A stretch of 64,000 nucleotides of DNA from Patescibacteria group bacterium (GTDB lineage Bacteria > Patescibacteriota > Microgenomatia > UBA8517), in assembly GCA_041742135.1 (NCBI GenBank), contig JBGSJG010000004.1, positions 171,773 through 235,772 of the forward strand. Reading direction: 5' to 3'. Shown one piece after another: positions 1 through 15,579 of the stretch; the first letter of the stretch is position 1; every line of letters starts with the position of its first letter. The position numbers and the translations under genes are program-made. The notes beneath the pieces are model-generated. The model was not told the origin of the DNA, ran no database searches, and was given only the letters and a program-made list of their open reading frames with translations.

Positions 1-773
1 TAGGCAGACCCCGCAGCGGGGCTTTCGATATGGATAAACGCGCGGAAGCAGTCAGAGGAGAGTGCCATTACTGTTGTTTGGAAGGTGTGTGTTGCCCCAG
101 TACCGATACGGACGTTCAAGGTATAGTTGGTAGCGGTGCTCGTGCCTTCGTCGTTGCCTTCAATGACAAAAAACTCTTGACGAACCACGACATTGGCTAC
201 GTTTTCAAGAAGTCCACCAGAGCCTGTAAGTTGAGGGACCTGATTCGTACCAATCTCGGACTCAGTTGTTCCCATAGCTCCGACCAAAGACTCCATAGGG
301 ATAATTGCCGAGGCGTATTGAGTAGCAGTGGTGTCATCAAACTCGTAGGTGACTGCAATCAGAGCTCCAATGTTATTAGTAGTTAAACCTGTCCCTGTTG
401 TAATATCAAAATAAACTGAAAGATCAAGTGTTGCGCTATTTGCTGCCGGAAAGTTTGTAACGAAATGAGAGGTAAAATCAAATGGCCCCAGCCACCCGCT
501 CATATTCTCACCGGAGTTAGAAATGTCGTCAGTTTCAGTAATTGTAGTTGACCCAGCGCCGTTTACTGAGCAGGCAACTCGATGCTCACCAACCGTTGCA
601 CCAGTTACTGTGCTCATATCAGAATAGCTAATCCAGACCATAACCGAGCGGAACGTCCGCGTAGCATTTTCAGCATAAACTGTGATTTGAGGCAAGGCGG
701 TAAGCGATGCGTCAGCAACAGATGCATCGCTTTTTTCAGTAGCGTACCAAAGTGTTTTGACTCTTTGCGCCAT
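1..773 (-). CDS. Thr/Ser-rich beta-rich hypothetical protein. The 5' end (ATG at 773..771) is in the window; the 3' end runs off the window edge. Paralog of the 636-aa protein at 1054..2964.
   Basis: Manual minus-strand translation from 773 (MAQRVKTLWYATEKSDASVADASLT...) stays open to position 1. It is absent from the ORF track because no in-window stop exists. It shares the MA[TQ]R N-terminus and VTYEFDD / F(L/F)xIxGNE motifs with the downstream paralog. Confidence 0.5.
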   Translation of the reverse strand, partial: MAQRVKTLWYATEKSDASVADASLTALPQITVYAENATRTFRSVMVWISYSDMSTVTGATVGEHRVACSVNGAGSTTITETDDISNSGENMSGWLGPFDFTSHFVTNFPAANSATLDLSVYFDITTGTGLTTNNIGALIAVTYEFDDTTATQYASAIIPMESLVGAMGTTESEIGTNQVPQLTGSGGLLENVANVVVRQEFFVIEGNDEGTSTATNYTLNVRIGTGATHTFQTTVMALSSDCFRAFIHIESPAAGSA

Positions 774-1053: not shown

Positions 1054-2964
1054 TCAAGCTGCTGTACCATGATCGCTTCTGCCCTGATGTGTGGAGTCCT
1101 CATAGGCTGTAACATACATGTCTTCCACGTCACCATACCAAGTAAACGAATATGCCCCGTCGCCAGATCGGCTGGTTGTGGCCATCACTTCGTGTGTCCC
1201 CGCATCGTGAAGGTAGAGATTAATTGTTCCTCCACCAGAGCCAGAGATGTCTCCAGCAATGGTAAAGGTGATAGTGTGATACGTAACCCACAGGCCATAC
1301 CAGCTAGTTGATAAAGTCGGAGTATCCATCCTGAAAGATCTCGAAGTTTCTATGTCAAGGCGTGTGGGGTCCATATCGTTGGGGTGGCGCTTCCAAGTCT
1401 TTCTTGATGCATATCGAGCGGTAATGTTGCAGTTTTCATTGTCGCTTCTGTATTGTGTAACTCCGAAAGTTTCCCAGCCTTCGCCCTCACCCTCACCCGA
1501 TTGGCGCTCAGCTTGCAAACACAGCGATCCGGAGGTTGTGTTGTCTGTTGTTACCCCTCCTTCAGAGCAAACTCCAGTAAGCCAATAGCTAGACTCAGGG
1601 ATGGGGACAGATTTGCTGTCAACTTGATCACAATAGTTGTCATTGGTGCACTCAGACAGCAAATGAAACCGTGATTGATTGTGTGCACCAACACCATCAG
1701 TTGCTTTACCGCTTGTATAGTTTAAGATTAAAAATCCATTGACGCCCCAGCCATCATTGGCAGTAGAGGAGTAGATTCTGCATTCATACGGCATGCGTCC
1801 GCGTGCCAGCGTTGTAAAAGCTGTTCCTTGCTGGCCTCCAGCATCAATGCGGTGGACGAACATCCACTGTCCGTTTTGTGAACTTCCCGCTGTACAAGTG
1901 TATGTGGTGTAGCTGGCCTGGTTTCCCACAGCAATGTTCATAGATGTTGTGGCTGCGCCGTTTAGGCCAATTACACACGCACTCTCCTTGAGTGTAATAG
2001 TTGTTGGCTCTTGGATAAAGATGTCGCGCCCCCATGAGTCTCCATCTCCAGAAGTAGTTCCTCCAGCCCATCCTGTGGTATCAATCGCTCCGAGAATTAA
2101 ACTATTCCAAACAGTTGTAGTGGAAGAAGGATCAAATTCATATGTGACAGTGACCCATCCTCCTGGGTTGTCACCGCGACTGGTCACAGTAGCGCTCATC
2201 TCAAGCGAGCTGGCAGAAGTTAGAGTTTCTCCTGTGATGTCATAGCATAAGTTAATCCAACAAGATGCTGATAATCCTGCTTCCACATCCCAAACAGTAA
2301 CTGTACTGCCACCGTTTATGCGTAGTTGAATAACAAAGTCTGTGGTGGTGGCCACTACCTCGTTTCCAGTTATTTCCAGAAACGCCTGCCGAAGTGTTAC
2401 AGAGCCTTCCGGTAAAACACTACTGCCCCCAGTTAAAGCGGGGATTGCCGTGGCGCCACCGATAGTTTGCATAGAAGTTGTTAGTACAGATCGGGTAGAC
2501 TCGATAGGGATTCTGATAGTCTTTATGTGGGTACTGCTCGTGTCATCGTAGTCATAAGTGATAACAAGCTTAAATGAGTGATTTATAGTATTGGTCAGCG
2601 TTGCCCCATTAAAGCGCACGTACCAAGTGTTGCTTGTTCCGGACCAATTACTAGCAAAAAAGGCTGTAACGTCGGCCGCATACCACCAGGCTTCATTGTC
2701 GCCCGAGTTTGCTACTGGTGTTCCAAGTGCGTTGTTGTCTTGAGTACCAAACCCGCTGTCTGTCCCAATTGCCAGCTGTACATTCGCTAGGTTTCCAGCA
2801 GTCGTATTATCTCCACGAAACTGACACAAGAGGGAAACACTGCGAAATGCCACGACTGTTTCGGGGATATAAATCGCAATCGATTTGTCTCTGTTTGAGG
2901 CAGCGGTGAGTGTTGTTGCATCTACAGAGCTTGCAAATTCGATTGTTTTTTGTCTTGTTGCCAT
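1054..2964 (-). CDS. Hypothetical 636-aa Thr/Ser/Gly-rich protein with internally repeated beta-modules and no signal peptide.
   Basis: ORF track. Composition is low-complexity and T/S/G/N-rich. Internal module ends recur (KLVITYDYDD, VTVTYEFDPS). It is paralogous to the partial gene at 1..773. Confidence 0.6.
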   Translation of the reverse strand: MATRQKTIEFASSVDATTLTAASNRDKSIAIYIPETVVAFRSVSLLCQFRGDNTTAGNLANVQLAIGTDSGFGTQDNNALGTPVANSGDNEAWWYAADVTAFFASNWSGTSNTWYVRFNGATLTNTINHSFKLVITYDYDDTSSTHIKTIRIPIESTRSVLTTSMQTIGGATAIPALTGGSSVLPEGSVTLRQAFLEITGNEVVATTTDFVIQLRINGGSTVTVWDVEAGLSASCWINLCYDITGETLTSASSLEMSATVTSRGDNPGGWVTVTYEFDPSSTTTVWNSLILGAIDTTGWAGGTTSGDGDSWGRDIFIQEPTTITLKESACVIGLNGAATTSMNIAVGNQASYTTYTCTAGSSQNGQWMFVHRIDAGGQQGTAFTTLARGRMPYECRIYSSTANDGWGVNGFLILNYTSGKATDGVGAHNQSRFHLLSECTNDNYCDQVDSKSVPIPESSYWLTGVCSEGGVTTDNTTSGSLCLQAERQSGEGEGEGWETFGVTQYRSDNENCNITARYASRKTWKRHPNDMDPTRLDIETSRSFRMDTPTLSTSWYGLWVTYHTITFTIAGDISGSGGGTINLYLHDAGTHEVMATTSRSGDGAYSFTWYGDVEDMYVTAYEDSTHQGRSDHGTAA

Positions 2965-3242: not shown

Positions 3243-3755
3243 CTAGACGTTCCACTTTTTCGTAAACCACCAATTTTTGTCGTCAGTGAGGTTAAGCCTA
3301 AAAGAATGACCCTTTGTATATCCATTGACCGCAGAGATGACTCCGTTTTTAGTTCCAGCTCGATAACCGTTGCCTGCCACAATTCCACCCTTCTTAACTT
3401 TTTTGGTCCATTCGATAATGTCTCGAGCCACTTCGTCAAAGCGCTTGTCTGCATCAATATAAACAAAATCCAAAGAAGAATCTTTAAAATCATGTACCGC
3501 TTTGAGGCTGTAGTTTTTAACGAGTCTACTTGAAAAAGGGGAGAGATTTTTACGGGCAAGGCTATTTTGTGCTCTGGTTTCAGCAGTGGATCTACCGTCT
3601 ACTTCCCAAGAGTCAATTCCGGTGTATTTTAGCCCGGGAATGTTCTTACAAAGAACTTTTCCAAACTCACCGTTTCCTACGCCAACCTCAACACCTGTCT
3701 TGTAGCCTTGGCTACCTAGATACTTTGCCAAATCAACACGATTTTTAAGAGACAT
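3243..3755 (-). CDS. Class I SAM-dependent methyltransferase (Methyltransf_24 / TylF-CmcI-like).
   Basis: Motifs VEVGVGNGEFGKVLC (Gly-rich SAM loop), LDFVYIDADK and GGIVAGNGY. It is paralogous to three other methyltransferase domains in this island. Confidence 0.75.
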   Translation of the reverse strand: MSLKNRVDLAKYLGSQGYKTGVEVGVGNGEFGKVLCKNIPGLKYTGIDSWEVDGRSTAETRAQNSLARKNLSPFSSRLVKNYSLKAVHDFKDSSLDFVYIDADKRFDEVARDIIEWTKKVKKGGIVAGNGYRAGTKNGVISAVNGYTKGHSFRLNLTDDKNWWFTKKWNV

Positions 3756-3800
3756 TTATAAACTAACATTAGCAACTGGCTTGCTACTATGCAAGATGTA

Positions 3801-5498
3801 TTAATTGAATTGCTTGATTATTTCGCTGGTTTTTCCCCATCCAGGGATGTCGTCTGTTGTGATAAACCCTTTGGCCGTGTCTTTGTCTCGAAAATCATTT
3901 ACACTCCATTTATTCTTGCTCAAATTGTGCCCGTGCTTGATGTCAAGCATTGGGAAAGGAGCTTTCCAAGACGCAGTTAGTTTAGTGTCTCGGCCACCGG
4001 GCTCAAAGCCCATTGAGCTTTTGTAGCCGTATTTTCTAACTTCGACGACGCGTTTTCGATAAAACTTAAGTAGGTGTTCGCGGTAAGCACACAAACCTGA
4101 AACTTGGTTTGCGTCCCAATGTACCGCAAAGCCATCGGTTGATCTTACTCGCCACCAGTTATGGTCGTAATAAAAAATATCTTTTTTGGGTGGGGTAAAT
4201 TCAAAGTGGGACGGGTGATAAATACAATCGTGTTCGCAGAAGTAAATTACTTCGGCGGTGCTTGCTTCAAGGCCCGCGAGAATTTGCTCAAACATTGCTA
4301 AATAGCTTCGTGTGAGGTGTTTAAGGTGGATGTTTTTAGTTCCAAAATGAGGCATGGGTTTAAGCGACACAGAGACAATTGGAATGCCCGAATCTTGGCT
4401 AATGTGGCGCAGCTGTCTTTGTACGGCATGGGCAATTTTGAGTTTCAACTGGTTGTCTGTATAAAACACAATGCCTTTTGTGGGCGTGGCAGAGTAGACA
4501 ACACCATTGTCGGAGATGTCTTCTGTTGGCTCAGCTTCGTCGGGCTTTGTGGTAAATTCCGGAAAAGAAAAAGTATTTGCTTTAAGGTTTGCCAAGTCTT
4601 GTTCTGTCCAGCCCTTGACCGGCCAAAACTTTTCTACTAGCCAGGAAAACGGGTGTTTTTGCAAGGGCCACTGATTATTAAAAAATAGATTTTTTGCATA
4701 ATTTTTGGCTTTCTCCTGGTCCCTGCCACTCATCGGGTATGGGAAGCCAAAGTCTCCACCTTGAGTGCGAAACATGTGTGCATACCATGTTTTTTTATTA
4801 ACCATAACTCGGCCACCAGAAAGCCAAGTTTTTGCCGCAACCTCTATGCCTTGAGAGCCCCAACTGCCAAAGTTTTCATCGCAAATGCCCAACTCCCAGT
4901 ATTTTTCGCGCGTTAGCATAAAGCACGATCCCTGAATTGACATACTCTCTGTTAGCTCTCCCTTGCCTTCTGGGCGCCTGCTATATTCACCAAAGTACTG
5001 AAAATGAGGCGAAGAATCAAAACAATAAGAAACACTTTCAGGCCGCGGTTTTGCTATCCACACCACATCTCGAGTTGTTGGCTTTCCACAAACAGTACAA
5101 GGTCCACTAGGGCTTTGGTATCTGCGGTGGCCATCTGGGCATACCCAGTCAAAAGCGTGGAGATTTCGCATCAGAGGGATCATCGTCCAATCATCGTGCA
5201 TCTCATTCATTAGTTTGACGTCAAAGCCTTCGTCAAACGCACAGTGAGCATCACACTTCATTACATACTTGGCGGTGGATAATCTAGCAGCTTGGTTTGT
5301 TGCAGCTCGTTGGCCGATACTTTCTTGATTATGGACGAGTGTTACTCGTTCGTGATCAATCACGCCCGGGTCAGCCCAAGCGCCATCAAGCACGGCAATA
5401 ATCTCTGTGTCGCCTCGCATATTTTTAAGAATGTCCTCAATGGTGCGCGCCAAGAACATCTCGTTTCTGGCAGGAATTAATATTGAAAGATCAGCCAT
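3801..5498 (-). CDS. Two-domain glycosyltransferase: N-terminal GT2 (GT-A fold) fused to a C-terminal domain that is paralogous to the upstream standalone gene.
   Basis: ILIPARNE...IAVLDGAW...KCDAHCAFDEGFD matches the GT2 pattern (DxD-like DAH). The C-terminal half (IYHPSHFEFTP) parallels ORF 5491..6195. The start was moved to the internal ATG at 5498..5496, which gives an ATGgcTGA 8-nt overlap with the upstream stop. The ORF-track start at 5765 would overlap the neighbour by 275 nt. Confidence 0.75.
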   Translation of the reverse strand: MADLSILIPARNEMFLARTIEDILKNMRGDTEIIAVLDGAWADPGVIDHERVTLVHNQESIGQRAATNQAARLSTAKYVMKCDAHCAFDEGFDVKLMNEMHDDWTMIPLMRNLHAFDWVCPDGHRRYQSPSGPCTVCGKPTTRDVVWIAKPRPESVSYCFDSSPHFQYFGEYSRRPEGKGELTESMSIQGSCFMLTREKYWELGICDENFGSWGSQGIEVAAKTWLSGGRVMVNKKTWYAHMFRTQGGDFGFPYPMSGRDQEKAKNYAKNLFFNNQWPLQKHPFSWLVEKFWPVKGWTEQDLANLKANTFSFPEFTTKPDEAEPTEDISDNGVVYSATPTKGIVFYTDNQLKLKIAHAVQRQLRHISQDSGIPIVSVSLKPMPHFGTKNIHLKHLTRSYLAMFEQILAGLEASTAEVIYFCEHDCIYHPSHFEFTPPKKDIFYYDHNWWRVRSTDGFAVHWDANQVSGLCAYREHLLKFYRKRVVEVRKYGYKSSMGFEPGGRDTKLTASWKAPFPMLDIKHGHNLSKNKWSVNDFRDKDTAKGFITTDDIPGWGKTSEIIKQFN

Positions 5499-6195
5499 AA
5501 ATTCGTAGTACCTCCTCGGCAGTTCCCCAAGGCGCGACATGGTCCGCCCGGATTTCGCTATGAGCTTTTCTGTTACCAAGTTCTGTATAGCCCAGAGCTT
5601 CTGATGTCGAAAACATAATATTTGGCTCTTCTGATTTATACTCCTCAGCGGGAACAGGGAAGATGCCAAGGTGGTTTTCGAATCTGCCAGGCTCACCCCA
5701 ATACATTCGCAAAAGCCCGGGAGGAGTTTCTTCAAGCGATGGATATTTGCTGTAGCGCTCTTCAAGCGTCTTAACTAGGGCGCTTTTGGTAGTGATCAGG
5801 CTATTCATAAGCTTTCGTTCGCGATAGGAAAATATTGGAGGCTTCACCCAAGAAAATATTGACCATTTATTAATGTTGTAAGAAAACATGTTGTCGTCAG
5901 CTGGGCGATAGTCAAAGTGAGAAGGATGATAAAGCATGTCGTCTTCAGCCATGGCAACGTACTTTGTTTGGGCGGCTCGGGCTCCAAGAAGCACTTGGTG
6001 GTAGATCATATAATTGGATCTTTTTTGTACTCCAATACAGATATTAGTGCAATTGTTTCCGATTACTGTTGGTTTAAAAGAAACGCTAACAATAGGCGTG
6101 TCGCCGATGGCTTTTAATAAATACTCTTGAGTGTTGGCCATAAAATGGTCACTGTTCATGTTTGCTGTGTAGTAGATGATTGTCAGGTCGTTCAT
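5491..6195 (-). CDS. Hypothetical protein, homologous to the C-terminal domain of the adjacent GT2 fusion (unknown, sugar-transferase-associated domain).
   Basis: The shared motif EDDMLYHPSHFDYRP parallels CEHDCIYHPSHFEFTP in the neighbour. It is coupled to neighbours on both sides by 4-8 nt overlaps. Confidence 0.55.
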   Translation of the reverse strand: MNDLTIIYYTANMNSDHFMANTQEYLLKAIGDTPIVSVSFKPTVIGNNCTNICIGVQKRSNYMIYHQVLLGARAAQTKYVAMAEDDMLYHPSHFDYRPADDNMFSYNINKWSIFSWVKPPIFSYRERKLMNSLITTKSALVKTLEERYSKYPSLEETPPGLLRMYWGEPGRFENHLGIFPVPAEEYKSEEPNIMFSTSEALGYTELGNRKAHSEIRADHVAPWGTAEEVLRIYG

Positions 6196-7049
6196 ATATT
6201 TTGGTTAATAAACTCTTGCCATATTTTGTATTTTTCTTTGTATATTTTGAAGTATGGATGATCTTCTTGGCCTTGCCAATAGGTTTCGTTAAGTTCAATC
6301 CCCGGCGCTTCATCTGTAAGGTTTTTAATTGGATTAGAAGCTCTTTTGTGCTCAACTGTGGCAAAGCCCGAAACAACTGCCCAGCCAAGTTTATCTAATT
6401 CGCGCTTGCTTGTGATCCCCGCGAATATATCATCGAAACGATTGATACCCAAAGCCCACGGCGCATGAAAGATATAGGGGAGAACTTTTCGTTTGAACGC
6501 AAGATTCATGCTACACATTGGGTAGTAAACACCTTTTGGAATGGGGCCTTTATAAAAAGTCGTTTTTCGTTTGTCACCAAGAACGAGCTGAGTTGGGGCA
6601 TCCCAGTCTCCCGAGCCTTCCCATACGCCGTGCGAGATAACAACTTCAGCTTCGTTTCTAATTGAGTAAGGGAAGCCTCTTGTGTAATCTGTGGCTGTGG
6701 AAATCCAGCTCACAGGGACATTTTGGTTGAGCGCAATAAGGTGGTCGGCGATAGTGTCGCCAAGAGGGAAGACGTCGTCATCCAAAGTAATGATAGTGTC
6801 AATGTCTTTAAGATTTTTCGCGACATAGGCGAAGCCCAAGTTTCTGATTCCTGCATTAAAGTTGGTCAATGCTTGAGCGTGTTTGCCCATCACCTCTTTG
6901 ACGCCTTTGCCATTAACTGTAGGATTTTTCCCGTCTTCGACTACAACCAATGTGCAGTCGTGCGCCTCAAATAGCTCCTGCCATGCACTTTTAAAAGCCT
7001 TGAACATACTCGGCCTGATGGTTGGAATTACAATAGCGATATTTGCCAT
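6192..7049 (-). CDS. RGP / GT75-family protein (reversibly glycosylated polypeptide / UDP-L-arabinopyranose-mutase-like).
   Basis: I recognise similarity to plant RGP1. IAIVIPTIRP...LVVVEDG parallels DIVIPTIRN...LIIVQDGD. ISHGVWEGSGDWDAPTQLV parallels VSHGLWLNIPDYDAPTQLV. PMCSMNLAF parallels PMCGMNLAF. RFDDIFAG parallels RYDDMWAG. HKRASNPIKNL parallels HSKASNPFVNL. Confidence 0.7.
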   Translation of the reverse strand: MANIAIVIPTIRPSMFKAFKSAWQELFEAHDCTLVVVEDGKNPTVNGKGVKEVMGKHAQALTNFNAGIRNLGFAYVAKNLKDIDTIITLDDDVFPLGDTIADHLIALNQNVPVSWISTATDYTRGFPYSIRNEAEVVISHGVWEGSGDWDAPTQLVLGDKRKTTFYKGPIPKGVYYPMCSMNLAFKRKVLPYIFHAPWALGINRFDDIFAGITSKRELDKLGWAVVSGFATVEHKRASNPIKNLTDEAPGIELNETYWQGQEDHPYFKIYKEKYKIWQEFINQNI

Positions 7050-7051
7050 GG

Positions 7052-7714
7052 TTATTTGTGTTTGCTCACGAAAGTTAAATATTCTGTTTCGTATTGATTT
7101 TCGCTGATCTCAGCCACATTTATTTTTTCTTTATAGATCACATAGGGCAGTGCAATTTGGTCACAAGTAAAATATCTGGACTGATAATACCACCAAGATT
7201 TAAGCATGTCGTGAACATTTTTGGTGTTTCTGTAAACAAAAGCGGTTGAGGTGTAAAGCACGGTATCGCGAAAGCCTGTGTCTGCCATCGCCTCGGCTAG
7301 CTGCTCTTTATGGAGCCCATTTTTGTATCTGGAAGTGATATATCGGCCGCCCTCTTGCAGTTTTTCTTCGATATGGTTAGTTTCTTCTGTAATTGAATTT
7401 CTCCAAGGATGTTTGAAAAAAGCCATGTCACTTGAGCCTAGTTTGTCTAAAAGCCAGACGGTTGAGTCCGCCCTAAGCATCGAAAACGAACTATCAAGCC
7501 AAATGTAAACATCATAATCGGGAAGCATCTGCCAGCCAAAAAGCTTGGGGATTCTGTATTGGAAACGTGGCGTAAGCCCTGTGATCGGAGGGAAGTCGTG
7601 GTCGGTGAAGCGGTGGAAATGTACTTTGGTAAAACCTGTTGGTGTGTCTTGGGAAACTGGGTCAATAGGTACATCGAAACTTCCTAAATTGGCCGACAAG
7701 ATAGCAATTTTCAT
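7052..7714 (-). CDS. Hypothetical protein in the glycosylation island (possible nucleotide-sugar transferase-like; function unassigned).
   Basis: ORF track. The gene is tightly packed between the RGP-like gene and the methyltransferase genes (2-nt spacers). It has no signal peptide or TM helix, and the YDVYIWLDSSF segment is acidic. Confidence 0.5.
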   Translation of the reverse strand: MKIAILSANLGSFDVPIDPVSQDTPTGFTKVHFHRFTDHDFPPITGLTPRFQYRIPKLFGWQMLPDYDVYIWLDSSFSMLRADSTVWLLDKLGSSDMAFFKHPWRNSITEETNHIEEKLQEGGRYITSRYKNGLHKEQLAEAMADTGFRDTVLYTSTAFVYRNTKNVHDMLKSWWYYQSRYFTCDQIALPYVIYKEKINVAEISENQYETEYLTFVSKHK

Positions 7715-7715
7715 A

Positions 7716-8972
7716 TTACTTGATCTTTACATACATCCAGCTATTTTCTCGATAGTCTGGAGGGTTTTTAAGCTCAAACAAGGGGTGGATCGCATAAGCC
7801 TCGCACCAGGCCATAACAACGTTTTTGACATGCCCAAACTGGCGATTCTTGCTGGTACTAAAATCGTGCCCCGCTATAATTCCACCCTTTCTTACCTTTT
7901 TGCTCCATACCGCGATGTCGTTGGTAACGGCCTGAAACGAATGGTCGGCATCGATGTATACAAAGTCCAAAGATTCGTCTGCAAAGTCTTTTGCCGCCTC
8001 AACGCTCCACGTTTTAATAATTTTATTATTTGGATATTTGGCAAGTTTATTTTTAGCTATCTCGTACGCACGATCGTGGTCTCTTTGTTTTCGAAAGTTT
8101 TTATAAACAGGGTAGAATAGCCATGGATCAACCGAGAAAAGCTTCAGATCTGGATTGGATTGGCAGAGTACTTCCGAGTAAGTTCCCTCCAAAACACCAA
8201 CTTCCACTCCGACTTTAAAGCCAAGTTCGCGAAACAACACAGGTAAATCTTTATATCGATTGCAGGAGATTTTTATAGGGGAAGGCTGGCTAAGATCGAC
8301 ATTAAATTTTTTGACGATGTATTCAAGAGTCGCGTCCATTTGAGGCTTAACGATTACCCAAGATCGATAGCGATCACGAACTTCGCCCGGAACAATTTCT
8401 TTTGTCCCAAGCACGTACCAAGTTTTTATGTTGTTTTGCATGGCAAAGCGGTTTGTTGCAGCCACGACATCGCAAAAATTGTTTTTTTGTCTTATGTAGT
8501 CATGCCCCGCCAAAATTCCGCCGGGCTTGATTTTTTTGTACCACTGGTTAATGTCTTCAGACACAAAAGGATCTCTGTGGTTGGCATCAATGTATACAAA
8601 ATCTAACGAGTCGTCTTCAAAGCGGCGCAAGGCGTCTACGCTAAACTCTTGAATCAGCTCGTAATTTTTATATTTTGAAAGTCGCGCTACGGCATCTGAT
8701 TTTAATTTTCCGAGGGTTGTTGTGGATGTGTAATCACGGTAGCCGCGGTAGGGAGTATAAGGATCGACGCCAATAACTTTCATGTCTGGGTTATTGCGGC
8801 AGAGAACCTCTGAGTACTCGCCCGAAGCCACGCCAACTTCCACTGCGGTTTTGAAATTAAGTTTTTTAAGCCACGCGGCAAGATCGTCACGCCCGACATT
8901 GGGTATTTCAAGCGGCATGCTTTCGTCTAACTTTAGCTTGTAATTTTTGGCTATAAACTCTGAAACGTTCAT
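7716..8972 (-). CDS. Tandem-duplicated class I SAM methyltransferase (two Methyltransf_24-like domains in one polypeptide).
   Basis: Domain 1 has AVEVGVASGEYSEVLC...DFVYIDANHRD...GGILAGHDY. Domain 2 has GVEVGVLEGTYSEVLC...DFVYIDADHSF...GGIIAGHDF. The start was set at the ATG 8972..8970, which forms an ATGA overlap with the upstream stop. The ORF-track start is 8999. Confidence 0.75.
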   Translation of the reverse strand: MNVSEFIAKNYKLKLDESMPLEIPNVGRDDLAAWLKKLNFKTAVEVGVASGEYSEVLCRNNPDMKVIGVDPYTPYRGYRDYTSTTTLGKLKSDAVARLSKYKNYELIQEFSVDALRRFEDDSLDFVYIDANHRDPFVSEDINQWYKKIKPGGILAGHDYIRQKNNFCDVVAATNRFAMQNNIKTWYVLGTKEIVPGEVRDRYRSWVIVKPQMDATLEYIVKKFNVDLSQPSPIKISCNRYKDLPVLFRELGFKVGVEVGVLEGTYSEVLCQSNPDLKLFSVDPWLFYPVYKNFRKQRDHDRAYEIAKNKLAKYPNNKIIKTWSVEAAKDFADESLDFVYIDADHSFQAVTNDIAVWSKKVRKGGIIAGHDFSTSKNRQFGHVKNVVMAWCEAYAIHPLFELKNPPDYRENSWMYVKIK

Positions 8973-9538
8973 ATTTTTACCCACATCCAAGACCGCCATT
9001 TGTCACGGTACATTCCCGGGAGGCTTTGGCGAAGTCCCCAAATAATCAGTGGGCTGATACCATGCTTTTTAACATATTTGTTTATCGTTGTCTTCACCAA
9101 AAACTGACCGTTCTTGGTTGGTATCGTGTCGTAATAATCGTGCCCTGCAACAATTCCGCCCTTTCTGACCTTTTTGCTCCAACAATCTATGTCGCTCACA
9201 ACAAATTCCGGTTGGTGATTTGCATCAATATATACAAAATCCAAAGACTCGTCATCGAATCTATTTGCGGCATCGATGCTGTATTCTCGGATAAACTTAT
9301 AATTAGGGTAAGGACTAAGGCGATCATATGCCTCTTTAAAATATTGCTCTTGCCGTTTTTGAGACGATGAGTTCTCTGTACGCTTGTCCGCTGGGTTTTT
9401 CCTTGAGTTTTCCTCGGACTCCCAAGGATCAATGCCATAGATTTTCATTTGGGGATTTTTTTTGCACAAAACCTCAGAATAACGCCCTCTTTCAACGCCG
9501 ATCTCAGCACCAACTCTAAAATCAAGCTCATGCAACAA
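8969..9538 (-). CDS. Class I SAM-dependent methyltransferase (fourth paralogous domain).
   Basis: Motifs EIGVERGRYSEVLC, LDFVYIDANHQPEF and GGIVAGHDY. It has a Lys/Arg/Glu-rich insert. Confidence 0.75.
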   Translation of the reverse strand: MLHELDFRVGAEIGVERGRYSEVLCKKNPQMKIYGIDPWESEENSRKNPADKRTENSSSQKRQEQYFKEAYDRLSPYPNYKFIREYSIDAANRFDDESLDFVYIDANHQPEFVVSDIDCWSKKVRKGGIVAGHDYYDTIPTKNGQFLVKTTINKYVKKHGISPLIIWGLRQSLPGMYRDKWRSWMWVKI

Positions 9539-9632
9539 GCTTGCAAGGTCTTCTCTTCCTGTGTTTGGGATTTCTACCTTCCAGTCGGGCTTGAGTTTGT
9601 ATTTTGTGAAGATATGCTCAAGGGTGTCTATT

Positions 9633-10640
9633 TTAATCTGCCTCCTCTCGAGCTTTGTCGATTATTATTTGCTCTTTCCAGTTTGCGGGCCAAGTAGGTA
9701 CTGGCCAGAATTTCTCAATTAGCCAGTCAAAATCGTGAACCTTCTTGGGGAATCGGTTGTTGAGCCAGTAATCAATACAATTTTTGCGTCCTCGGTCACG
9801 CTCTGCTTGATGAAAGGCGTAACGTGCATTTGAAAACCCGTAACCCTTACCAGCCTTACCTTTGTGCCAGTGCGCATACCATGTTTTTTTATTAACTATC
9901 ACGCGGCCGCCGCCAAGCCAGGTGTTGTTACAGACTTCTTGAGCTTCCTGGATGAAAGAACCATACAGTTCAATATTCATTGGGCCGATCATCTTGAACC
10001 ACCAATCCCGTGTGGTGAAGTAGAGCGACCCTTGTGCCGACATGTTGTCGTCAATCAGGATGTCTTTGCGGTCAAAATACCTCTGCCTCCAGTCATCACC
10101 ATGGAGGCCGCACGCAGGATCGTGAGTTTTTATGTAAGGGTAAGTCAGGTACATATAGTCTATTGGAGGGCGTGCGTCTGGAGCTACCTCCCATTTTTCG
10201 GGGTCAAGCCGTAGCCTTCGAGGGATAACAACCCAGTTGTCATCACAGTCCGCCTTGAGCTTCGTATCAAACCCTTGATCGAACAAACAGTGGCCGTCAG
10301 ACTTCATAACATATTTTCCTCTGGCAATGGCCATGCCAGCGTTAATACACTGTCTCATGCCTTTGTTCTCATGAATTGTTCCGTGATGAAGAATAATGAG
10401 ATTTTTGTGTTCAGGAAGTGGGGGATCAGGCCAATAGCCATCAAGCACGACGATCACTTCAATTGAGCCTTCGGCCTTGGTAAAAAGATCGTTGACTGTT
10501 TGTTCGAGATACTTCTCGTTTCTGGTTGGAATAATAACAGACACGTCCGGCATGATCATCCCAAAAATACCACACTTCTTGGCATAAGTACATACATATT
10601 TTATTAAACTAGAAGAGGCTACTGTAGTAATCGTAAGCAA
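9633..10640 (-). CDS. GT2-family glycosyltransferase.
   Basis: VSVIIPTRNE...IEVIVVLDGYW...KSDGHCLFDQGFD. It is paralogous to the GT2 domain of 3801..5498 (VNKKTWYAHW parallels VNKKTWYAHM). The track start is a TTG at 10640 overlapping the upstream gene by 32 nt. The real start is probably the internal Met near 10554-10560 (MIMPDVSVII). Confidence 0.75.
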   Translation of the reverse strand: MLTITTVASSSLIKYVCTYAKKCGIFGMIMPDVSVIIPTRNEKYLEQTVNDLFTKAEGSIEVIVVLDGYWPDPPLPEHKNLIILHHGTIHENKGMRQCINAGMAIARGKYVMKSDGHCLFDQGFDTKLKADCDDNWVVIPRRLRLDPEKWEVAPDARPPIDYMYLTYPYIKTHDPACGLHGDDWRQRYFDRKDILIDDNMSAQGSLYFTTRDWWFKMIGPMNIELYGSFIQEAQEVCNNTWLGGGRVIVNKKTWYAHWHKGKAGKGYGFSNARYAFHQAERDRGRKNCIDYWLNNRFPKKVHDFDWLIEKFWPVPTWPANWKEQIIIDKAREEAD

Positions 10641-11235
10641 GTTTCTCTCGAGCAGCCCATTTACCGGGGAAGTCAGAATCGCCTTTAGTATAGCGGAATG
10701 AACTCGATTCAGTGTCTTCTCTCATAATCAGCCAACCGCCATCCTTGTTTGTAAATCCATAATAGGTAATTACGTTATCGTCGATTTCAGAAATTTGATA
10801 GCCATCGAGTGGCTGGCGTTCGGCTGGGGAGATTTTTTTACCTTCGCTGTTTTCAAGAGACGTTAAGCTGGGTGTGCTCGCTTGGCCCGGCAGAATGTTG
10901 CCGACTTTTCCTCGGAGTAGTGAAAACAGGAAGAAGGAAAGTCCTGCAGCACCCACAAGTTTCAGAAATGCCCTCTTGTCAATGTCTGCCACCTCGACAG
11001 AGGTTTTGCGGGCTTCTTCAGGTGGCTCTACTGTTTCCGGCTCCGCCCTGGATACCTGAATGGAAACCTCTCTGACTTGTTTTTTGTGTGGCAAGAGCTT
11101 GACCGCCAAGATGGCGAGTAGAGGATACAACAGTGTGGCAACCCCCAACTGTGTGTACGTTCGAGCGGTTAAAAACAAAATAACAACAACAAGGAAAGCT
11201 ACTGATAAACTGGTATAGGTGAGGGTCTTTCGCAT
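10609..11235 (-). CDS. Hypothetical membrane protein (two N-terminal TM helices, charged linker, third TM, ~100-aa C-terminal extracytoplasmic domain).
   Basis: ORF track. Hydrophobic stretches are LSVAFLVVVILFL, ATLLYPLLAILAV and LVGAAGLSFFLFSLL. No motif is recognised. Confidence 0.5.
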   Translation of the reverse strand: MRKTLTYTSLSVAFLVVVILFLTARTYTQLGVATLLYPLLAILAVKLLPHKKQVREVSIQVSRAEPETVEPPEEARKTSVEVADIDKRAFLKLVGAAGLSFFLFSLLRGKVGNILPGQASTPSLTSLENSEGKKISPAERQPLDGYQISEIDDNVITYYGFTNKDGGWLIMREDTESSSFRYTKGDSDFPGKWAAREKLAYDYYSSLF

Positions 11236-11238
11236 GGC

Positions 11239-12378
11239 TTAATAAATAAACGCGTAATCTGCGGATATAAAACCAGTATCGTCAAGCAGCTTTATTTCAA
11301 GCCACCCGGGATGTAAAGAGACCAAGTCAAATACATCTCCAGATTTCGCTTCTCCAATTTTCTCTGATTGTGCCGTCGGCTCTTTGCGAATGTTTACGCT
11401 CGCCAAGGCACTTTCTGCAATTACTGTAACTTTTGCGTAACCTAACGGGCTTGGAGTCTCTAGGGTCTCCACCACTTCCTCAACAGGTTCAAGTGGGGCA
11501 GGTGAGGGTGTTTCTACGGTTGTAACTGCCAACACTTGCGTTTCCTGCGTGTCTTGAGCAGAAGAAATTCTTACGTTACTGTACCCCACGCCGACAAGCA
11601 TAAAAAATAATACTATTAGGCTAACGTACTCAGGAGTTCTTGATAAACGCACTATTTCCGCATTTAAGGCCTCATGCTTGCGAGGACTACTTGCAAGGAT
11701 CGGTTTTGTATCAGTCTTTGCAAGTGTATGGGGGATATTCTCTAGAACTATGTCTAAAAGCAAATCGCCGTTTTCTAACTCGGCCTGATGCTTCTTTTGC
11801 AAATCTACAAAACTTTTAGCGCCTTCCTCTTTTAAGGCAGAAAGGACAATTTTTGTGTTCACCCACGATGTTTGCTTTTTCCCCGAATATTCGGGATATG
11901 TTGAGATGCGAGCGCCGTTTTGGATGTGCGCAGTGAGATGAGCAAGTTGCGCCGATGTTTCAATTTTCGCAGACTTATAAGGCCCTTCAAAGAGTGCTCC
12001 TGAGTGTTTATACTTTCTGTTGAAGTAAATTGAATAGCGTGTGCAAAGCGATCTGATAAAACTCTCGATTGCTTTCTCCTCAACTTGGTGGAGGAGAAGA
12101 TGGAAGTGGTCTGGGAAAAGGCTAAACGCCAAAAGTTGGATTTTTCCGAAGTAGTTTTTTGGCAGATGCGGCGTTCCTTTGTATGTGCGGCCTTTTACTG
12201 TAAAATCTTTTTTGAGGCTACTTGGGTCGTGAGGTGCGCTCAAATACTCGCCTAAATAGGCTACAAATACGCTGTAATCATCGTCATCTCCGAAGATGAT
12301 TCTATTCGCTGCACCTTTGTTGTAGACGTGCGAATTTGTCCCTTTTTCAGGCGACCTGAGCAGGCTCTTGGCAGGCAT
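11239..12378 (-). CDS. RAYT / IS200-like HuH tyrosine-transposase domain fused to a TM helix and a C-terminal SH3b-like domain.
   Basis: The HuH motif is PDHFHLLLH. YFNRKYKHSGALFEGPYKSAKIE matches the Y1-transposase/RAYT signature (YFNRRxGRSGxLFQGRYK). This is followed by the hydrophobic LIVLFFMLVGVGY and then GYAKVTVIAESALASVNIRKEPTAQSEKIGEAKSGDVFDLVSL..WLEIKL (SH3b-like). Confidence 0.7.
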   Translation of the reverse strand: MPAKSLLRSPEKGTNSHVYNKGAANRIIFGDDDDYSVFVAYLGEYLSAPHDPSSLKKDFTVKGRTYKGTPHLPKNYFGKIQLLAFSLFPDHFHLLLHQVEEKAIESFIRSLCTRYSIYFNRKYKHSGALFEGPYKSAKIETSAQLAHLTAHIQNGARISTYPEYSGKKQTSWVNTKIVLSALKEEGAKSFVDLQKKHQAELENGDLLLDIVLENIPHTLAKTDTKPILASSPRKHEALNAEIVRLSRTPEYVSLIVLFFMLVGVGYSNVRISSAQDTQETQVLAVTTVETPSPAPLEPVEEVVETLETPSPLGYAKVTVIAESALASVNIRKEPTAQSEKIGEAKSGDVFDLVSLHPGWLEIKLLDDTGFISADYAFIY

Positions 12379-12490: not shown

Positions 12491-12563
12491 GGGCCTGTAG
12501 CTCATCTGGTAGAGCGCTGCATTCGCATTGCAGAGGTAAGGGGTTCGATTCCCCTCAGGTCCA
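12491..12563 (+). tRNA. tRNA-Ala (anticodon CGC).
   Basis: It forms a cloverleaf. The acceptor is GGGCCUG/CAGGUCC with the G3:U70 Ala identity pair. The D-arm is GUAGCUCAUCUGGUAGAGCG. The anticodon arm is CUGCA-UUCGCAU-UGCAG. The T-arm is AGGGG-UUCGAUU-CCCCU. The discriminator is A and CCA is not encoded. Confidence 0.9.
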
Positions 12564-12688
12564 CTAAATGGTGGTTGAGCACATCAAGCCCAGAAGGATT
12601 AGTGGAGTTATGGAAAGGTATGTCTTCGCAAGCAGAAGTGGCTTAGGATTCAAATGACGGGCATAGTTATTTAATCTCTTCAAGTTAA

Positions 12689-14823: not shown

Positions 14824-15579
14824 TTAAAATATAGAATGATATACTTCTGTATTATCAACTTTCCACTGAAAGTCGCATTCCCATTCAAGTGAGCTTTCAA
14901 TTGCAACAACAAAGTATCCTTCACCTTGGCTTTTGACATACAGACTTTGACCGTTTGTGGGAGAGTTTGCTGTAAGACTAATAAATGATTCATCGTTCAC
15001 AAGATTACTTAGCACGAGTGCTTCCTTTTTATTGGCGGCAATTTCGCTCTTACCAACGGACACGGCATAGCTTTCAATCGACTGACTGGTTGTTGTCTCG
15101 AGTGGGTCAGTAATTGAATTATGGATATCGTCTGTAAGTGGTGGAGTTTTTAAGACTATAAAATCGTCCGTACCAGAAGAAGCGAGTCTAGCAATTGCCT
15201 TGCTGTTACTATTAATAGTATTGCTTTCCGGAACCATTGCGGGATTATTTACTTCTATGTAAGAAACTGAAGGGGAGGCGCTTCGAAAGAAATGGCTTGA
15301 CACTGCGGAAAGAGAGAGGATAGATAAAGCCGCCAGGGCATATACCCCAAATGATTGGTAACGTCGTGAATTAGTGAATTCTAAATATCTCTTGATAGCG
15401 TAATTTCTCCTTTTGATGGTGGCTGGGCTGTAAGCTTTTTCTTCATCGCTAGCCAAAAAGGAACGAACATCGCTAATATAATTTTTAACTGTTGTTTCTG
15501 AGGCGCCAGATTTTTCAAGCGATCGCTTAAAGTCGGCTAATACTTTAGGGGTACTGTGAGAGTGTAACTTTATAATCAT
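14824..15579 (-). CDS. Hypothetical membrane-anchored protein with an N-terminal phage-integrase-SAM-like (core-binding-type) helical domain.
   Basis: N-terminus is FKRSLEKSGASETTVKNYISDVRSFL...IKRRNYAIKRYLEF (integrase N-terminal-like). It has a single TM (VYALAALSILSLSAV) and a Ser/Thr/Asn-rich C-terminal region. Confidence 0.45.
   Translation of the reverse strand: MIIKLHSHSTPKVLADFKRSLEKSGASETTVKNYISDVRSFLASDEEKAYSPATIKRRNYAIKRYLEFTNSRRYQSFGVYALAALSILSLSAVSSHFFRSASPSVSYIEVNNPAMVPESNTINSNSKAIARLASSGTDDFIVLKTPPLTDDIHNSITDPLETTTSQSIESYAVSVGKSEIAANKKEALVLSNLVNDESFISLTANSPTNGQSLYVKSQGEGYFVVAIESSLEWECDFQWKVDNTEVYHSIF

Follow-up and report, generated by a model that had tools for sequence, protein, structure and literature searches.

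Phage-type glycosyltransferase and methyltransferase cassette in a Patescibacteria chromosome: a candidate system for protein O-glycosylation

What does a compact group of glycosyltransferase (GT) and methyltransferase genes do in the chromosome of an ultra-small bacterium? The question is raised by positions 3243-10640 of a 64-kb stretch of Patescibacteria DNA (assembly GCA_041742135.1, contig JBGSJG010000004.1, 171,773 to 235,772), which is called the window below and whose numbering is used throughout. Eight open reading frames (ORFs) lie here, all on the minus strand, co-directional and closely packed. Intergenic distances are between -8 and +45 nt, except for one of about 95 nt that precedes the TTG start annotated for 8969-9538. 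Counted by domain, the eight proteins contain five sugar-adding domains, one sugar-ring mutase and four Methyltransf_24 domains. None of the eight has a transmembrane (TM) segment in the TM scan, so they are soluble. The first-pass annotation described the same tightly packed, same-strand arrangement at these positions, and it is present on the minus strand; its count of nine genes came from counting the fused methyltransferase twice.

Our results suggest that the island is a phage-type, cytoplasmic system for Ser-directed protein O-glycosylation and O-methylation, an interpretation to which we give slightly better than even chances. Proteins are the most likely objects of decoration with methylated sugars because in hundreds of uncultured phages the cassette travels with serine-proline repeat proteins, and the decoration would resemble that of mucins in animal cells. 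The window itself is cellular DNA of Patescibacteria type (candidate phyla radiation, or CPR): it encodes LeuRS, ArgRS, ComEC, ATP synthase, a T4SS-pilin-like tail and giant LamG proteins, and the nearest named relatives of the island proteins come from 'Candidatus Microgenomates' and 'candidate division WWE3'.

Sugar-adding enzymes of the island

Two GT2 genes and an RGP homolog, as named in the first-pass annotation, were found by Pfam. The two GT2 proteins are paralogous (33% identity, E=1e-53). When a profile built from 35 GT sequences of the island and related loci was searched against PDB, the six best matches were polypeptide GalNAc-transferases (ppGalNAc-Ts), with ppGalNAc-T1 at E=6e-14. 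The alignment to ppGalNAc-T1 spans about 260 residues, i.e. the whole catalytic domain, whereas other GT2 structures align over the first 85-120 residues only. The DxH metal motif of the island GTs (DGH and DAH) is aligned with DAH of GalNAc-T1, and D87 is invariant in the 35 sequences. E207, W213, G216, G217 and H229 are invariant as well and are aligned with WGGENLEISFRIWQCGG...GHVFR; the Gal/GalNAc-T motif and the third His (in WYAH) are present in the family alignment. Counterparts of 3801-5498 in phage and cellular loci are 57-79% identical in the N-terminal segment and 46-68% in the C-terminal one. By profile similarity the island GT2s are full-length relatives of animal ppGalNAc-Ts.

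Animal ppGalNAc-Ts (CAZy GT27) initiate mucin-type O-glycosylation. They share with the island GTs the GT-A domain, the DxH, the Gal/GalNAc-T motif and the third His. The parallel with mucins extends to the genomic tie of the cassette to Ser/Pro-rich, mucin-like repeat proteins. Neither a ricin-type lectin domain nor a type II membrane anchor was found in the 308-aa GT, which consists of the catalytic domain only and has no TM segment; the island GTs thus differ from the animal enzymes in lacking both and in being cytoplasmic rather than Golgi proteins. It is important to note that the likeness is detectable only by family profile.

Two of the proteins had been regarded as unknowns, one of them as a paralog of the C-terminal domain of a GT2. 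The paralogy stands, since the 234-aa X protein and the C-terminal domain of the ORF called at 3801-5765 are 33% identical (E=6e-15), but both proteins turn out to be glycosyltransferase-like. Pfam gives no family match for 5491-6195. The AlphaFold model of the X domain (pLDDT 93) was compared by Foldseek, and the top matches are all GT-A glycosyltransferases (SpsA at 7.5e-8, WrtF, AvpGT and GlcAT-P); its ExD pair (E84, D86) is invariant in 35 sequences. Judged from the model, the X domain is a previously unrecognised GT-A glycosyltransferase. The second protein, of 220 aa, has a borderline match to Pfam TOD1_MUCI70 (23.5 bits at a cutoff of 21.4, profile positions 143-291 of 314), and its orthologs, 46-61% identical, adjoin RGP in 15 loci. 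Profile searches of PDB with the X and TOD1-like families gave spurious sequence matches only.

The RGP homolog scores 111.3 bits (cutoff 23.8) over 254 residues of the Pfam RGP family and matches the UDP-arabinopyranose mutase structure 8cid (7e-14). It belongs to a family of about 285 aa with more than 1000 homologs, the best 120 of which are 61-78% identical. DDD (D90-D92) and RGFPY (R124-Y128) are invariant among these homologs; plant RGP/UDP-arabinopyranose mutase (GT75) has the corresponding DDD and RG[FY]P motifs. Unlike plant RGP, which has about 350 aa, the island protein is shorter, its family is prokaryotic or phage-borne, it is optional in the cassette, and its mutase activity is a candidate one. 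Our literature search found no paper joining RGP with Patescibacteria. The homology points to a furanose, with UDP-arabinofuranose as the best guess. A possibly furanose-containing glycan had been proposed earlier, and this idea gains from the RGP homolog as well as from possible feeder genes in some phage cassettes: that of L017 (L numbers denote our loci) adds two SDR epimerase/dehydratases, and L012 and L011 add a UDP-glucose dehydrogenase-like gene. Such additions are consistent with a UDP-Ara pathway.

The cassette in phages and its linkage to serine-proline repeat proteins

Searches with the island proteins (tblastn) revealed a shared gene set, mostly in the order GT, methyltransferases, TOD1-like, RGP, X and GT-X. 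Its carriers are a 321-kb metagenome contig (L001, 41-82% protein identity to the island), a WWE3 genome (L043-45) and contigs of Microgenomates/Saccharimonadia metagenome-assembled genomes (MAGs; L004-L006). It is also present in many viral contigs from IMG/VR; these belong to tailed phages, measure about 36-46 kb and encode terminase and a major head protein, and in most mapped phage loci it follows the head genes. Further additions to phage cassettes are aminotransferase or Methyltransf_11 enzymes. Beyond the cassette genes, the window and the phage loci have nothing in common. The ppGalNAc-T-like GT family occurs in at least 573 stretches of IMG/VR; among 50,697 GenBank phage records there is nothing comparable to the window GTs and RGP apart from one distant RGP homolog (32% identity) in a 595-kb uncultured phage (LR756511.1 205984-206775), the sole such record. 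By homology and gene order this is a conserved mobile cassette, and the window holds a chromosomal copy of the phage type. The first-pass annotation overlooked the phage connection, and the degenerate fourth methyltransferase as well.

Cassette-carrying phage loci encode co-directional proteins that consist largely of (SPSAS[VI]S)n repeats with 33-52% serine plus threonine (S+T). S/T-rich ORFs were found in 11 of 13 cassette phage loci and in 1 of 13 loci with RGP only (p=2e-4). In an independent sample of 78 GT-seeded and 79 control viral loci, with an ORF of at least 10 SPS as the criterion, such ORFs are present in 57 of the GT-seeded loci and in none of the controls (p=2e-25). The 90 SPS ORFs all share the strand of the GT; their median distance from the cassette is 0.7 kb, and their mean composition is 29% Ser and 6% Thr. 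JGI gene calls in L012 match the SPS-repeat ORFs; a candidate substrate in this phage locus is a 288-aa protein at 4937-5794. In L001, L043 and L005 public annotation calls the opposite strand over the (SPSAS)n regions; the plus-strand ORFs there match the phage repeat proteins and are probably real genes. Such systematic wrong-strand gene calls over SPS repeats have been brought to light.

Methyltransferase domains

All four Methyltransf_24 domains, which had been recognised earlier, are above the Pfam gathering cutoff (PF13578, 26.3 bits) and lie in three proteins that score 42.9, 112.3 and 60.5 bits. The second of these scores covers two stretches, in agreement with the earlier description of two domains in one 418-aa protein. 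Pairwise identity among the four is 35-45%, and SAM motif I (VE[VI]GV..G) is present in each. The designation TylF-like, on the other hand, finds no basis, as no window protein matches PF05711 at E<=0.01; one L011 ortholog has a faint precomputed TylF match.

The AlphaFold model of domain c (pLDDT 94) has the fold of cation-dependent O-methyltransferases, and Foldseek relates it to Rv0187, TomG, COMT and MeT1. The best profile match is the sugar 1-O-methyltransferase MeT1 of M. hassiacum (E=4.8e-4). MeT1, the methylmannose polysaccharide (MMP) 1-O-methyltransferase (PDB 6g7d/6g80), shares the D..H...HD residues and the fold (TM 0.62-0.66) with the cassette methyltransferases, although the similarity is weak (15-19% identity). 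Catechol and tRNA methyltransferases score as well as MeT1 by fold, so the structure does not tell which class of substrate is used. Fusions with glycosyltransferases recur in this family. Assignment as sugar O-methyltransferases would therefore rest mainly on the cassette context and on these frequent fusions. That the island is a gene set for building and methylating a glycan, as proposed in the first-pass annotation, is supported by the same fusions and by MeT1 as the nearest characterised profile relative.

The methyltransferase domains also match PHROG 2675, labelled 'DNA methyltransferase', at 1e-40. This label goes back to the unsupported RefSeq annotation of a cyanophage gene (NC_047713.1 29141-29695; L002 5974-6528), and the Loki virus homolog is annotated as carbohydrate O-methyltransferase. 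The label thus appears unsupported, and its doubtful status is worth bringing to light. The cyanophage gene adjoins one for a 2OG-Fe(II) oxygenase and lies downstream of genes for tail fiber and tail proteins.

The conserved motif blocks ascribed to all four domains are complete in three. In an alignment of 42 methyltransferase sequences (cassette and outgroup), domain a (3243-3755) reads DADK and GNGY, whereas 41 of the 41 others have the H and [HD]D. Domain d has DANH and GHDY, and b and c keep DA[DN]H and GHD[YF]. The near-invariant residues aligned with MeT1 (DFxxID..H and G[HD]D) are present in the three domains, and three of them are replaced in domain a, even though its nearest relatives, L038, L005 and L006 among them, retain H and HD. 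Domain a is probably inactive or altered. Domain d has a conserved N-terminal extension, in frame to 9661 and about 40 codons beyond the first TTG (9538); up to 9661 it contains no ATG, GTG or TTG, which suggests a non-canonical start or a truncated protein.

A local four-fold expansion of the family had also been proposed. In a neighbour-joining (NJ) tree, whose deep nodes are weakly supported, the four window domains are scattered and form no common group. Orthologs in L001 and L004 are the partners of domains d and b (bootstrap 86-100; d with the L001 ortholog at 100), and a and c pair weakly with methyltransferases of other cassettes. Since the domains pair with those of other cassettes and not with one another, the copies would be old paralogs, and on this tree we reject a recent tandem expansion. 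Among the 78 GT-seeded phage cassettes, 16 have no methyltransferase domain, 44 have one and 18 have two. Phage L038 has four, and the chromosomal and MAG-binned copies have two to four.

Function of the cassette and its surroundings

How could the enzymes work together? Shown by the analysis are the gene content, the homologies, the solubility of the eight proteins, and a cassette that is conserved and statistically tied to (SPSAS)n proteins; the steps that follow are proposed from homology and context. The Mn-dependent ppGalNAc-T-like enzyme (9633-10559) would transfer the first sugar onto Ser in Ser/Pro-rich repeats, and the ppGalNAc-T-like domain of 3801-5498 would serve further sites or chain extension. 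Ser and also Thr residues may be glycosylated, in the cytoplasm and before O-methylation of the sugars. The two X domains and the TOD1-like protein could elongate the chain, while the RGP homolog would convert a UDP-pyranose, most likely UDP-L-arabinopyranose, to the furanose donor. The three intact Methyltransf_24 domains may methylate different hydroxyls; the fourth probably takes no part. In phages the targets would be the virion proteins encoded beside the cassette, and for the present genome none is visible in the 64-kb window.

Several points weigh against this interpretation. All catalytic and functional assignments are computational, and likeness to ppGalNAc-Ts is no proof of a protein acceptor. 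Only 4 of the 78 GT-seeded phage cassettes include RGP, and L001 and L043 lack it, so the furanose step would be optional. An export route is needed for a glycoprotein made in the cytoplasm of a cell, and none was identified. There are signs of decay, namely the degenerate domain a, the absence of a canonical start in domain d and the frameshifts in L001. Moreover, no (SPS)n or mucin-like protein was found in the 64 kb of the window. The first-pass annotation had named the Ser/Thr-rich neighbours as substrates, but these are only moderately rich: S+T is 24% in the 636-aa protein and 20-24% in the giant proteins, with no dense tracts (8-16% in other window proteins), as compared to 33-52% in the cassette-linked phage proteins. 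Its idea of protein O-glycosylation is favoured by the ppGalNAc-T-like GTs and by the linkage to Ser/Pro-repeat proteins elsewhere, and its proposed substrates are not.

It is unlikely, in our opinion, that the cassette instead serves to make or alter a glycan of the cell envelope, be it a wall polysaccharide or a lipid-linked oligosaccharide, with phages using it to alter the host surface for serotype conversion or superinfection exclusion. Serotype-changing phage glycosyltransferases are well known (cited in PMC12619734), a multi-TM TPR protein resembling the O-antigen-ligase type is located upstream in the window and in L001, and the membrane proteins TM208 and SH3 go with the cellular copies. 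However, no gene for a polyprenyl-phosphate priming transferase, a flippase or a polymerase is part of the cassette, its eight proteins are all soluble, and in phages it is placed inside the structural block, beside head genes, with a very strong linkage to SPS-repeat proteins. The cytoplasmic location of all enzymes and the absence of export genes would agree with a free polymethylated oligo- or polysaccharide, like mycobacterial methylmannose polysaccharide, or with glycosylation and methylation of small molecules; several methyltransferases per cassette and a closest solved relative by sequence in the MMP pathway (MeT1; PMC9883506) point the same way. Such a product is nevertheless quite improbable, as the match to MeT1 is weak (E=4.8e-4), the hydrolase and the GT-B mannosyltransferase of the MMP cluster are missing, and this reading explains neither the ppGalNAc-T-like enzymes nor the SPS linkage nor the position among structural genes of phages.

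The cassette of the window could also be a decaying prophage remnant with no current function in the cell. In addition to the state of domains a and d, phage tail-module-type genes directly downstream, a tRNA-Ala gene at the upstream edge, frameshifts in the X and methyltransferase genes and loss of RGP in L001, and the lack of an SPS-type substrate in the window speak for it. We consider a remnant improbable all the same: eight ORFs are intact and tightly coupled, the order SH3-TM208-cassette is kept in the divergent L001, the WWE3 genome and L009, and no integrase, terminase, capsid gene or att repeat is found in the window, which cuts the left edge of the region. Modification of nucleic acid (DNA glycosylation or methylation) as an anti-restriction device would fit the label of PHROG 2675, and DNA-hypermodifying phage glycosyltransferases exist (cited in PMC12619734). 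This explanation has hardly any probability, since that label has the weak origin described above and stands against the carbohydrate O-methyltransferase label in Loki virus, the fold resembles catechol/sugar O-methyltransferases with no DNA-recognition domain, and PADLOC gives no matches. We know of no role of RGP or ppGalNAc-T-like enzymes on nucleic acids.

Ser-directed protein glycosylation can be compared with other virus-encoded systems. In chloroviruses, machinery of the A064R type combines glycosyltransferase domains with a sugar methyltransferase and, in a virus of eukaryotes, equips the capsid protein with N-linked glycans. In general terms the likeness is that of a virus-encoded cytoplasmic machinery with methylated glycans on a virion protein; in the case of the cassette the glycans are proposed to be O-linked to Ser. 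Closer in setting are the virion glycosylation genes of mycobacteriophages, i.e. gp35-38 of Corndog/Cluster O and those of Che8 (Freeman et al. 2023 as summarised in PMC11600133 and PMC12619734; PMC4351075). As far as these accounts go, the mycobacteriophage genes resemble the cassette in combining an O-methyltransferase with several glycosyltransferases in the structural block, in acting in the cytoplasm and in having virion protein targets, which for the cassette are predicted. Their enzymes have no detectable sequence relationship to those of the cassette, which has a different set (ppGalNAc-T-like, RGP, TOD1-like, new GT-A and Methyltransf_24). The candidate substrates of the cassette are long (SPSAS)n repeats, whereas the mycobacteriophage accounts describe short C-terminal tails, and the cassette has a chromosomal copy in Patescibacteria.

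If protein O-glycosylation is the true function, glycosylation of virion proteins, demonstrated so far for mycobacteriophages, extends to a large group of uncultured phages, and protein glycosylation extends to Patescibacteria, whose surface biology is almost unknown. ppGalNAc-T-like enzymes would then be at home in prokaryotes and viruses as well, with evident candidate substrates at hand, and in vitro tests could address how mucin-type glycosylation arose and what it minimally requires. Methylated, furanose-containing glycans on the surfaces of phages and epibionts could affect adsorption, protease resistance and host recognition. A bolder proposal, which we put forward tentatively and would not yet bet on, is that prokaryotic viruses and their ultra-small bacterial hosts own true mucin-type O-glycosylation: lectin-less relatives of ppGalNAc-Ts would initiate on (SPSAS)n of virion and cell-surface proteins, GT-A enzymes would extend the chains, sometimes with arabinofuranose, O-methyl groups would cap them, and the window would hold a domesticated, methyltransferase-enriched version.

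Table 1. Features of the cassette, of its surroundings in the window and of candidate substrate loci
Feature	Position	Strand	Basis
Methyltransf_24 domain a	3243..3755	-	Pfam 9.7e-11
ppGalNAc-T-like domain fused to second X (GT-A) domain, 565 aa	3801..5498	-	Pfam GT2, paralogy
Stand-alone X domain, 234 aa, divergent GT-A fold, no Pfam family	5491..6195	-	AlphaFold, Foldseek
RGP/GT75 homolog, 285 aa, candidate UDP-arabinopyranose/furanose mutase	6192..7049	-	Pfam RGP 7.5e-32
TOD1/MUCI70-like putative glycosyltransferase, 220 aa	7052..7714	-	Pfam PF04765 4e-5
Fused double Methyltransf_24 (b N-terminal, c C-terminal), 418 aa	7716..8972	-	Pfam 2.6e-32, two stretches
Methyltransf_24 domain d	8969..9538	-	Pfam 3.2e-16
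ppGalNAc-T-like (GT27-like) GT-A glycosyltransferase, 308 aa, candidate initiating enzyme	9633..10559	-	Pfam GT2 1.3e-12
208-aa protein, three TM-like segments, cassette-upstream partner in cellular copies only	10609..11235	-	Orthologs, TM scan
Y1_Tnp-like + TM + SH3_3 protein, cassette-upstream partner in cellular copies only	11239..12378	-	Pfam
tRNA-Ala(cgc), 113 nt from the start of the SH3/Y1_Tnp gene	12491-12564	+	
636-aa phage tail-module-type protein, downstream of cassette	1054..2964	-	Homologs in viral loci
Partial paralog of the 636-aa protein (N-terminal 257 aa), truncated by window edge	1..773	-	28% identity over 249 aa, E=1e-16
Three consecutive giant proteins, 1653, 1766 and 4832 aa	28579-53359	-	
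(SPSAS)n protein, 1335 aa, directly downstream of cassette	L001 16681-20685	+	ORF
(SPSAS)n protein, at least 749 aa, directly downstream of cassette	L043 12499-14745	+	ORF
(SPSAS)n protein, at least 253 aa, 5.5 kb upstream of cassette	L005 1-759	+	ORF

The starts at 10559, 8972 and 5498 are proposed on the basis of homolog alignments and of overlaps in relatives. The first GT2 ORF is open to TTG 10640 and its likely true start is ATG 10559. The double methyltransferase was called at 7716-8999, and its 418-aa version overlaps the upstream gene by 4 nt. For the GT2-X ORF the likely start gives an 8-nt overlap, as in L043.

Downstream of the cassette, the 636-aa protein belongs to a family of fixed length (about 640 aa) with 738 representative clusters. 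The family has no match in PHROGs, and the PDB profile search gave spurious matches only. It is found in at least 79 IMG/VR viral loci, none of which has a cassette gene; its place in phages is the tail module, and in L053 the homolog is about 6 kb after the tape measure gene. We reject the 636-aa proteins as conserved substrates, as in viral loci they never occur with cassette genes. The tandem paralogs hint at phage-derived DNA past the left edge of the window. Farther off, at least 18 kb from the cassette and past housekeeping genes, are the giant LamG proteins; those of 1653 and 1766 aa each have six or seven Laminin_G_3 domains and DUF2341 (Pfam), and the N-terminus of the 4832-aa protein has no signal-peptide-like hydrophobic start. 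With 0-2 short S/T-dense segments each, they are rejected as conserved substrates too.

Upstream, the pair of SH3/Y1_Tnp and 208-aa genes precedes every chromosomal cassette and no phage one (10609-12378 on the minus strand of the window, L001 5904-7744, L009 8317-9920, L043 3066-5040). Orthologs of the 208-aa protein, 46-49% identical, have the same position in L001 and L009, and a 208-aa gene is likewise found in L043-45; SH3/Y1_Tnp orthologs are present in L001, L009 and L043-45. The tRNA-Ala gene is at the upstream edge of a co-directional block that runs from 12378 down to 1, an adjacency not kept in L001 and L043. As an integration site it was rejected, no att-like repeat having been found. 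PADLOC models matched none of 10 proteins, and an anti-phage defence system was rejected on this ground. Between the TPR membrane protein and LeuRS, a 251-aa protein with 16% Ser (14824-15579, minus strand) has a weak, below-cutoff match to the N-terminal SAM-like domain of phage integrases.

Genes for TatA/TatC occur near the cassette in two relatives (L001 5247-5432 and 20998-21056; L011 2508-4120), and the KRAFLKL motif of the 208-aa protein resembles a Tat signal. It is conceivable that cytoplasmic glycosylation is coupled to Tat export.

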